Part shown: positions 51,317-51,346 of the stretch, piece after piece
Numbering within the stretch: position 1 is the first letter of the stretch
How the letters are laid out: the number at the start of each line of letters is the position of its first letter
Source of the DNA: Escherichia coli
GTDB lineage: Bacteria > Pseudomonadota > Gammaproteobacteria > Enterobacterales > Enterobacteriaceae
Strand: one strand, 5' to 3'
Length of the DNA stretch: 64,000 nucleotides
NCBI RefSeq assembly: GCF_050920415.1
Contig: NZ_CP169309.1
The notes under the pieces: model-generated
Seen by the model: the letters and a program-made list of their open reading frames with translations, nothing else
Database searches by the model: none
What the model was told of the DNA's origin: nothing
Position numbers and translations under genes: made by a program

Positions 51317-51346
51317 TCTGCATGGTTATGCATAACCATGCAGAAT
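51317..51346. terminator. Perfect 30-bp palindrome downstream of rhtA (terminator-like hairpin or protein-binding site)
   Basis: ttctgcatggttatgcataaccatgcagaa equals its own reverse complement; followed by T-rich sequence. Confidence 0.55.

Follow-up and report, generated by a model that had tools for sequence, protein, structure and literature searches.

The intergenic region between rhtA and dps of Escherichia coli carries a perfect palindrome of 30 bp, and its position raises the question of whether it works as RNA, at the end of the rhtA transcript, or as DNA, upstream of the dps promoter. The region was analyzed within a stretch of 64,000 nucleotides (the window), in which the order of the genes is ompX (minus strand), rhtA (plus), dps (plus, 51606-52109) and glnH (plus); the locus is E. 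coli rhtA-dps. A 471-bp query spanning the site finds a match in 5421 of 5426 complete E. coli genomes, where the flanking genes in RefSeq are rhtA and dps, and RefSeq shows no annotated feature beneath the hairpin site match. The rhtA stop codon (TAA) occupies positions 51305-51307, and the published transcription start of this gene, MG1655 850130 (SMRT-Cappable-seq, PMC6131387), corresponds to position 50387 of the window.

The initial annotation had described a perfect 30-bp palindrome at 51317-51346, starting 10 bp after the rhtA stop. The 30-mer, TTCTGCATGGTTATGCATAACCATGCAGAA, is indeed present in the window and coincides exactly with its reverse complement; the interval, however, was displaced by one nucleotide: 51317-51346 is not self-complementary, and the correct coordinates are 51316-51345 (849172-849201 in MG1655, by gap-free alignment). 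The distance was also overestimated, given that 8 nt (ATTTACAT) intervene and the palindrome starts at the ninth base after the stop. It is not extendable, the next pair outwards being T:T (51315/51346). The features of the site are the following:

50420..51307, plus strand: rhtA coding sequence (threonine/homoserine exporter), from the ORF list and the RefSeq annotation of (near-)identical E. coli DNA.
51308..51315, plus strand: spacer AUUUACAU, 8 nt, from the stop codon to the hairpin, read from the sequence.
51316..51328, plus strand: 5' arm of the hairpin, UUCUGCAUGGUUA, from the palindrome scan and the RNA fold.
51329..51332, plus strand: loop UGCA, itself palindromic, from the RNA fold.
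51333..51345, plus strand: 3' arm of the hairpin, UAACCAUGCAGAA, from the palindrome scan, the RNA fold and covariation.
51346..51354, plus strand: tail UUUCUCGCU, a weak U-tract, from the terminator scan.
51346..51395, plus strand: C-rich, G-poor untranslated tract after the hairpin, a putative Rho loading region.

This is the longest perfect palindrome of the 64-kb window, with an arm of 15 nt against 9 nt for the runner-up, and the maximum arm in each of 100 windows simulated with a first-order Markov model was 7-11 nt. The second-longest one, TTTCACTGGCCAGTGAAA, has 18 bp and lies at 25747-25764. As RNA, the sequence folds into a 13-bp stem closed by the UGCA loop, with a free energy of -18.7 kcal/mol (z = -5.4) that none of 200 shuffled sequences equaled. 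Neither a 24-nt core pattern (up to 3 mismatches) nor a covariance model detected a second copy within the window, and a 44-nt query found one site per genome, identical in 4087 genomes and with one mismatch in 1333; the palindrome is therefore single-copy in ~5420 of the 5426 complete E. coli genomes, and the two places reported per genome arise because a palindrome matches both strands. A repeated element of the REP/BIME type, which is likewise an extragenic palindrome placed after a gene, was ruled out: those elements occur in many copies that share a consensus, whereas the rhtA palindrome is found once per genome, does not recur in the window and lacks the REP consensus. In Rfam 15 no family reached its gathering score at the site, the sole overlap being MIR6027 at chance level (19 bits vs 95, E 0.94).

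The conservation of the site was analyzed in loci from 80 species of Enterobacteriaceae plus Pantoea, fetched with RhtA as a probe. With few exceptions, these species keep rhtA followed by dps at a distance of ~300 bp and have a hairpin directly past the rhtA stop; it begins 2-16 nt (usually 7-11 nt) after the stop in most of 79 loci. The sequence of the stem varies by genus. Escherichia, Citrobacter, Salmonella, Lelliottia and many Enterobacter have in common the arms (A)TTCTGCATG...CATGCAGAA(T), and differ from one another in the inner stem and the loop. At the same position, Kosakonia (UAUUCAGYAUGAGA/UCUUAUGCUGAAUA), Buttiauxella (UAUUUACCGUGG/CCACGGUAAAUA), Atlantibacter (UAUUCCGCAUC/GAUGCGGAAUA), Leclercia (UUUUGCCGG/CCGGCAAAA), Franconibacter and others carry different arms that are nonetheless mutually complementary. 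RNAalifold, applied to 53 distinct sequences, gave a consensus stem of 10 pairs with compensatory changes at all 10; 95.8% of the cells of this stem are paired and 118 show changes on both sides. The covariation score was 0.685, compared with 0.233 for shuffled alignments (0 of 500 reached the observed value) and at most 0.158 when the partners were slid. The full-length perfection of the 30-mer is an Escherichia-specific accident: the whole sequence is a perfect DNA palindrome in this genus because its 4-nt loop is self-complementary, while in other genera the loop has 3-9 nt and is not palindromic.

A palindrome of this kind could also be an operator at which a dimeric transcription factor controls dps or, from a downstream position, rhtA, and the initial annotation had mentioned a dimeric regulator site for dps. 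Besides the perfect symmetry, the arms speak for such a site, since 8-10 nt of them are very conserved in 32 species in spite of saturated neutral sites; 32 of 79 species have the same arm core, TCTGCATG, and where it occurs together with CATGCAGA the distance between both arms is confined to 10-12 nt. Within that range, however, the spacing varies (5 loci have 10 nt, 22 have 11 and 5 have 12), and the spacer remains self-complementary as its sequence changes (GGTT/AACC, GATG/CATC, GGC/GCC), a property that a hairpin requires and a protein site does not; a variable, self-complementary spacer argues against a dimer operator of fixed geometry. In addition, other genera have replaced both arms with unrelated complementary sequences, G·U pairs are tolerated, and the window holds no second copy. 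The position of the palindrome is also unfavorable: taking the dps transcription start at 848950 (window 51567), it spans -251 to -222, with its center at about -236, beyond all the conserved elements of the promoter, which are known to lie within ~120 bp of the start site. The half-sites or the spacing of NtrC, NsrR, ArgR and MntR sites do not appear to match the palindrome, and a literature search returned no regulator reported at it. The regulator site is thus disfavored by its variable spacing, self-complementary spacer, genus-specific stems and distance from dps, and we consider an operator highly improbable.

An alignment of the intergenic region from 13 species shows two conserved islands, which are the hairpin and, after ~150 unconserved bp, the proximal dps promoter. 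The proximal island includes an OxyR-like element (CTATTA..GATAGG), the -10 sequence GCTATACT and the 5' UTR. Its most conserved upstream element is CTATTAGTGTGATAGG (51505-51520, -62 to -47 from the dps start), presumably an OxyR site, in which CTATT and GATAGG are invariant in 13 genera. A short palindrome, CATAGCCGGTGCTATA (51543-51559), overlaps the -10 (GCTATACT); its right half and the -10 are invariant in the alignment of 13 genera, and it resembles the MntR box reported for dps.

The mismatches in the stem carry information about the molecule on which it is read. For a palindrome that serves a protein dimer or a cruciform, G:T and A:C mismatches should be equivalent; an RNA hairpin, in contrast, tolerates a mismatch only if it becomes G·U in the transcript. 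Among the non-Watson-Crick cells of the consensus stem, G·U was counted 27 times in the rhtA-sense orientation and 10 times in the antisense one, in counts that ignore shared ancestry; 3 of the 10 antisense cells come from a single misaligned row. A strand-blind finder of inverted repeats, applied to 65 distinct hairpins, gave 17 G:T, 4 A:C and 7 other mismatches, again disregarding shared ancestry, and, with the same caveat, the more stable RNA was the sense one in 53 loci and the antisense one in 14. When independent events were counted by eye there were roughly ten G·U against three. The covariance-model score of both strands was not used as a strand test because the model includes the flanks. 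The bias of G·U toward the rhtA-sense strand points to an RNA hairpin, and the mismatches and the stability, both derived from sequence comparison, give moderate support to a hairpin formed by the sense strand. A bidirectional terminator is unlikely, given that no convergent gene is present and the antisense tail is no more U-rich.

Two loci in which rhtA and dps have been separated indicate to which gene the hairpin belongs. One locus (L075) carries an rhtA homologue without dps downstream, and an unrelated hairpin is found 12 nt past its stop. The reciprocal case is E. coli 2015-01-2097 (NZ_LR881940.1), in which the rhtA side has been replaced, so that the palindrome is lost and ~230 bp upstream of dps are kept. 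From the comparison of these sequences, the hairpin goes with rhtA and not with dps. Strain 2015-01-2097 is a pig isolate with genes for a recombinase and a methyl-accepting chemotaxis protein upstream of dps (positions 1-2500 of the locus); its homology to the window restarts at ~51375, and the dps promoter is retained.

The palindrome has already been described in the dps literature as a weak in vitro contact of Dps: the "30 bp inverted repeat" at the center of the Dps contact region, 216-281 bp upstream of Pdps, is the rhtA palindrome (PMC4433220; PMC5553809). According to the proposal of Ozoline and Antipov, it would be a cruciform or inverted repeat bound by Dps or another nucleoid protein that tunes the dps promoter, and the loss of the interaction of Dps with the repeat would alter the topology of the promoter. 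One of the bands protected by Dps, ~175 bp from primer dps_F1 (PMC4433220), maps to about window position 51352, at the right edge of the palindrome, and the perfect repeat of Escherichia, with its AT-rich center, favors extrusion. The protection, however, consists of a few DNase I bands at a 5-10-fold excess of Dps, and Dps binding was stronger for the proximal fragment F2-R2 than for the distal one, in which the whole palindrome is contained (PMC4433220); F2-R2 is unable to form the hairpin because primer dps_F2 starts within the right arm, at ~51338. The published Dps-binding experiments read differently once it is considered that the distal fragment is largely the 3' end of rhtA plus its hairpin. 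The perfect or near-perfect repeat with a minimal center is found only in Escherichia, and thus the pattern expected of maintenance at the DNA level is absent; in the other genera, G:T mismatches and non-palindromic centers of 5-9 nt make for poor cruciforms, and the strand-specific bias of the mismatches is what is expected of RNA and not of DNA. Furthermore, a hairpin is present after rhtA in a locus without dps, and one E. coli strain has dps without the hairpin. The in vitro evidence for a Dps target is thin, and the comparative data do not support it; we regard a DNA element bound by Dps as quite unlikely. Melekhov 2015 (PMC4433220) and Antipov 2017 (PMC5553809) treated the sequence as a DNA target for Dps, and here it is read as an RNA hairpin of the rhtA transcript; both readings are compatible and not mutually exclusive. 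A 2011 Biophysics article, as cited in PMC4433220, deals with a distal promoter-like "P3" that is reportedly needed for maximal dps expression; the idea that the palindrome is this promoter finds no support, since our scans show no sigma-70-like match at or near it.

If the sequence is a hairpin of the rhtA transcript, the next question is what the hairpin does. The simplest interpretation offered by the initial annotation was the rhtA terminator. The hairpin half of this claim holds, in that a conserved sense-strand RNA hairpin (covariation, G·U bias) accompanies rhtA where dps is absent and separates two genes with separate transcripts; the tail does not conform as well, as UUUCUCGC has U at 4 of the 8 positions past the stem, fewer than the ~5 or more of 8 of a U-rich tract. 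Because of this weak U-tract, a simple terminator scan misses the rhtA hairpin; the same scan does call the dps terminator at 52149-52173. As in the intrinsic terminators of Enterobacteriaceae, a sense stem-loop with compensatory changes and an A/U-rich tail is located past the stop, and the next gene, dps, has its own promoter and transcript. It differs from them in the weak U-tract, in an AT-rich stem (5 of 13 pairs are G-C) and in the stem base, where U predominates on the 5' side and A on the 3' side, opposite to the usual A-tract/U-tract layout. Across the species the tail is mostly AAUAUUC or AAUAUC, with a mean of ~3 U in 8. The dps terminators of the same loci were dropped as a control for the U-tract because their minimum-energy folds pair the A-tract with the U-tract, which shifts the tail. 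The dps terminator stem (52149-52173) is followed by the tail TTGTTTTGCA, and its region (52100-52182) has sub-threshold Rfam matches to ctRNA_p42d (26 bits, E 0.008), STnc70 (19 bits) and isrD (18 bits), which probably reflect a generic resemblance to terminators.

The variation within E. coli is confined to the end of the hairpin: every polymorphism sampled affects the tail or the outermost pair, without any change in the 28-nt core. The tail occurs as UUUUU, as UUUAU, with a deletion of 2 nt and with the change of B2 strains, in which the last base of the palindrome (A, 51345) is T. The B2 variant, GCAGAUUUUCUC with tail UUUUCUCG, is terminator-like on the sense strand by the simple scan and is the only one with a U-rich tract. 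An invariant stem followed by a polymorphic tail is not what a U-tract-dependent terminator predicts.

The published maps of transcripts are in agreement with a boundary between both genes. By SMRT-Cappable-seq, b0813 (rhtA, start 850130) and b0812 (dps, start 848950) are each monocistronic, and no b0813|b0812 read-through operon is listed (PMC6131387, supplementary file 4). No high-confidence termination site was called at the rhtA hairpin in that data set, in which an operon without a called termination site is defined by its longest read (PMC6131387). In the part of the Term-seq tables available (PMC7815308), the dps terminator (848340) and two dps-internal ends are listed and no 3' end appears near MG1655 849165 on the minus strand; rhtA is perhaps too weakly expressed. 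Our literature search on an rhtA-dps terminator, on Rho-dependent termination of rhtA and on the palindrome sequence returned nothing relevant.

The same portion of the Term-seq tables (PMC7815308) includes orphan 3' ends in the vicinity. Those at MG1655 850273/850293, on the plus strand (window ~50224-50244, minus), are ~157 nt upstream of the ompX start codon and beside a small hairpin, GCGTAAGTATTACGC, in the divergent region of rhtA and ompX. They could correspond to an attenuator or to the end of a small RNA in the ompX leader. On the other side of dps, TGGTGC/GCACCA repeats, presumably NtrC-like, occur at 52330-52400, just upstream of an end at MG1655 848057. This end is a strong orphan on the minus strand (window ~52460), 53 nt upstream of glnH and after CACGATTTTTTCAT, in the accessible Term-seq tables (PMC7815308), and it implies that transcripts are terminated prematurely or processed in the glnH leader.

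A second way to account for an rhtA hairpin with a poor tail is that the stem is only a barrier that protects or processes the 3' end, Rho stopping rhtA transcription further downstream and exonucleases trimming the RNA back to the stem. The U-tract is poor in almost all the species, and within E. coli it is the tail that is polymorphic and the stem that is invariant. Past the hairpin, the sense strand is C-rich and G-poor: the first 50 nt in the window have a C fraction of 0.28 and a G fraction of 0.08, the means over 74 loci are 0.236 and 0.115, and C exceeds G in 65 of the 74; this tract is compatible with Rho acting on read-through, as weak evidence, given that the excess of C over G is modest and of a kind usual in AT-rich intergenic DNA. 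Dar and Sorek 2018 (PMC6061677) described Rho-dependent transcripts that are trimmed back to a stem, and their protective 3' stem-loops are likewise stable, devoid of a proper U-tract and followed by an untranslated region with C>G. Compared with those stem-loops, the conserved A/U tail of rhtA and the B2 variant suggest some intrinsic activity. The A/U-only tail AAUAU(U/C) is kept together with a complementary sequence at the foot of the 5' arm, which suggests that the tail matters, and the B2 variant fits the pattern of an intrinsic terminator; moreover, the available tables of PMC7815308 list no bicyclomycin-sensitive 3' end in the region. On balance, a stem that is purely protective, with Rho as the terminator, seems to us unlikely, though less so than the readings of the palindrome as DNA.

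We consider it probable that the palindrome is the 3'-end hairpin of rhtA, that is, an intrinsic terminator of leaky and non-canonical type with an additional role in 3'-end protection and possibly with Rho as a backup. Once the polymerase has passed the rhtA stop, the nascent RNA would form, 8 nt after the stop, the 13-bp stem with its UGCA loop, and the A/U-rich tail (AAUUUCU) would come right after the stem. Acting as a leaky non-canonical terminator, the stem may end the rhtA unit ~215 nt upstream of the dps start; if termination is intrinsic, the 3' end is expected at about 51350-51354 (MG1655 ~849163-849167, minus strand). Rho would then dislodge the escaping polymerases along the C-rich, G-poor untranslated stretch downstream, and the stable stem could shield the 3' end of the rhtA mRNA from 3'-exonucleases.

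The degree to which the arms are conserved deserves separate consideration. Relative to the window, the mean identity of the non-Escherichia loci is 0.375 at the 4-fold degenerate sites of rhtA, 0.495 in the 60 nt past the rhtA stop (0.55-0.75 in Citrobacter and Salmonella), 0.35 in the middle of the intergenic region, 0.70 in the 110 nt proximal to dps and 0.18 in the 70 nt past the dps stop. The 4-fold sites of rhtA are thus near saturation while the arms are identical in 32 species, and the region of the dps terminator has turned over; at the sequence level, the arms of the rhtA hairpin are held far tighter than the neighboring dps terminator. Slow compensatory evolution under strong selection for pairing can explain this conservation. 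It is also conceivable, but we think it a long shot, that the arms UCUGCAUG/CAUGCAGA are read in a sequence-specific manner, either in the RNA, by a protein that determines the fate of the rhtA mRNA, or in the DNA, by a nucleoid protein such as Dps. The rhtA-dps spacers of Siccibacter colletis (L053), Buttiauxella sp. A111 (L061) and an uncultured Cedecea (L077) are 70-110 bp longer than the usual ~300 bp, a difference that points to small insertions in the stretch from the hairpin to the dps promoter.

The hairpin that probably closes rhtA is an ordinary feature whose sequence is already in the literature, and its recognition gives the rhtA transcription unit a defined and conserved 3' boundary, which matters little beyond annotation. 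It would explain how the dps promoter, which is heavily regulated, is kept isolated from transcription coming from upstream, and it concerns the engineering of threonine/homoserine export, in which the overexpression of rhtA could make read-through into dps relevant. It is of mild interest that the sequence of a stem lacking a proper U-tract is conserved far beyond a typical terminator; if its arms were read sequence-specifically, the same element would close the rhtA transcript and also determine the topology or activity of the dps promoter ~236 bp downstream.
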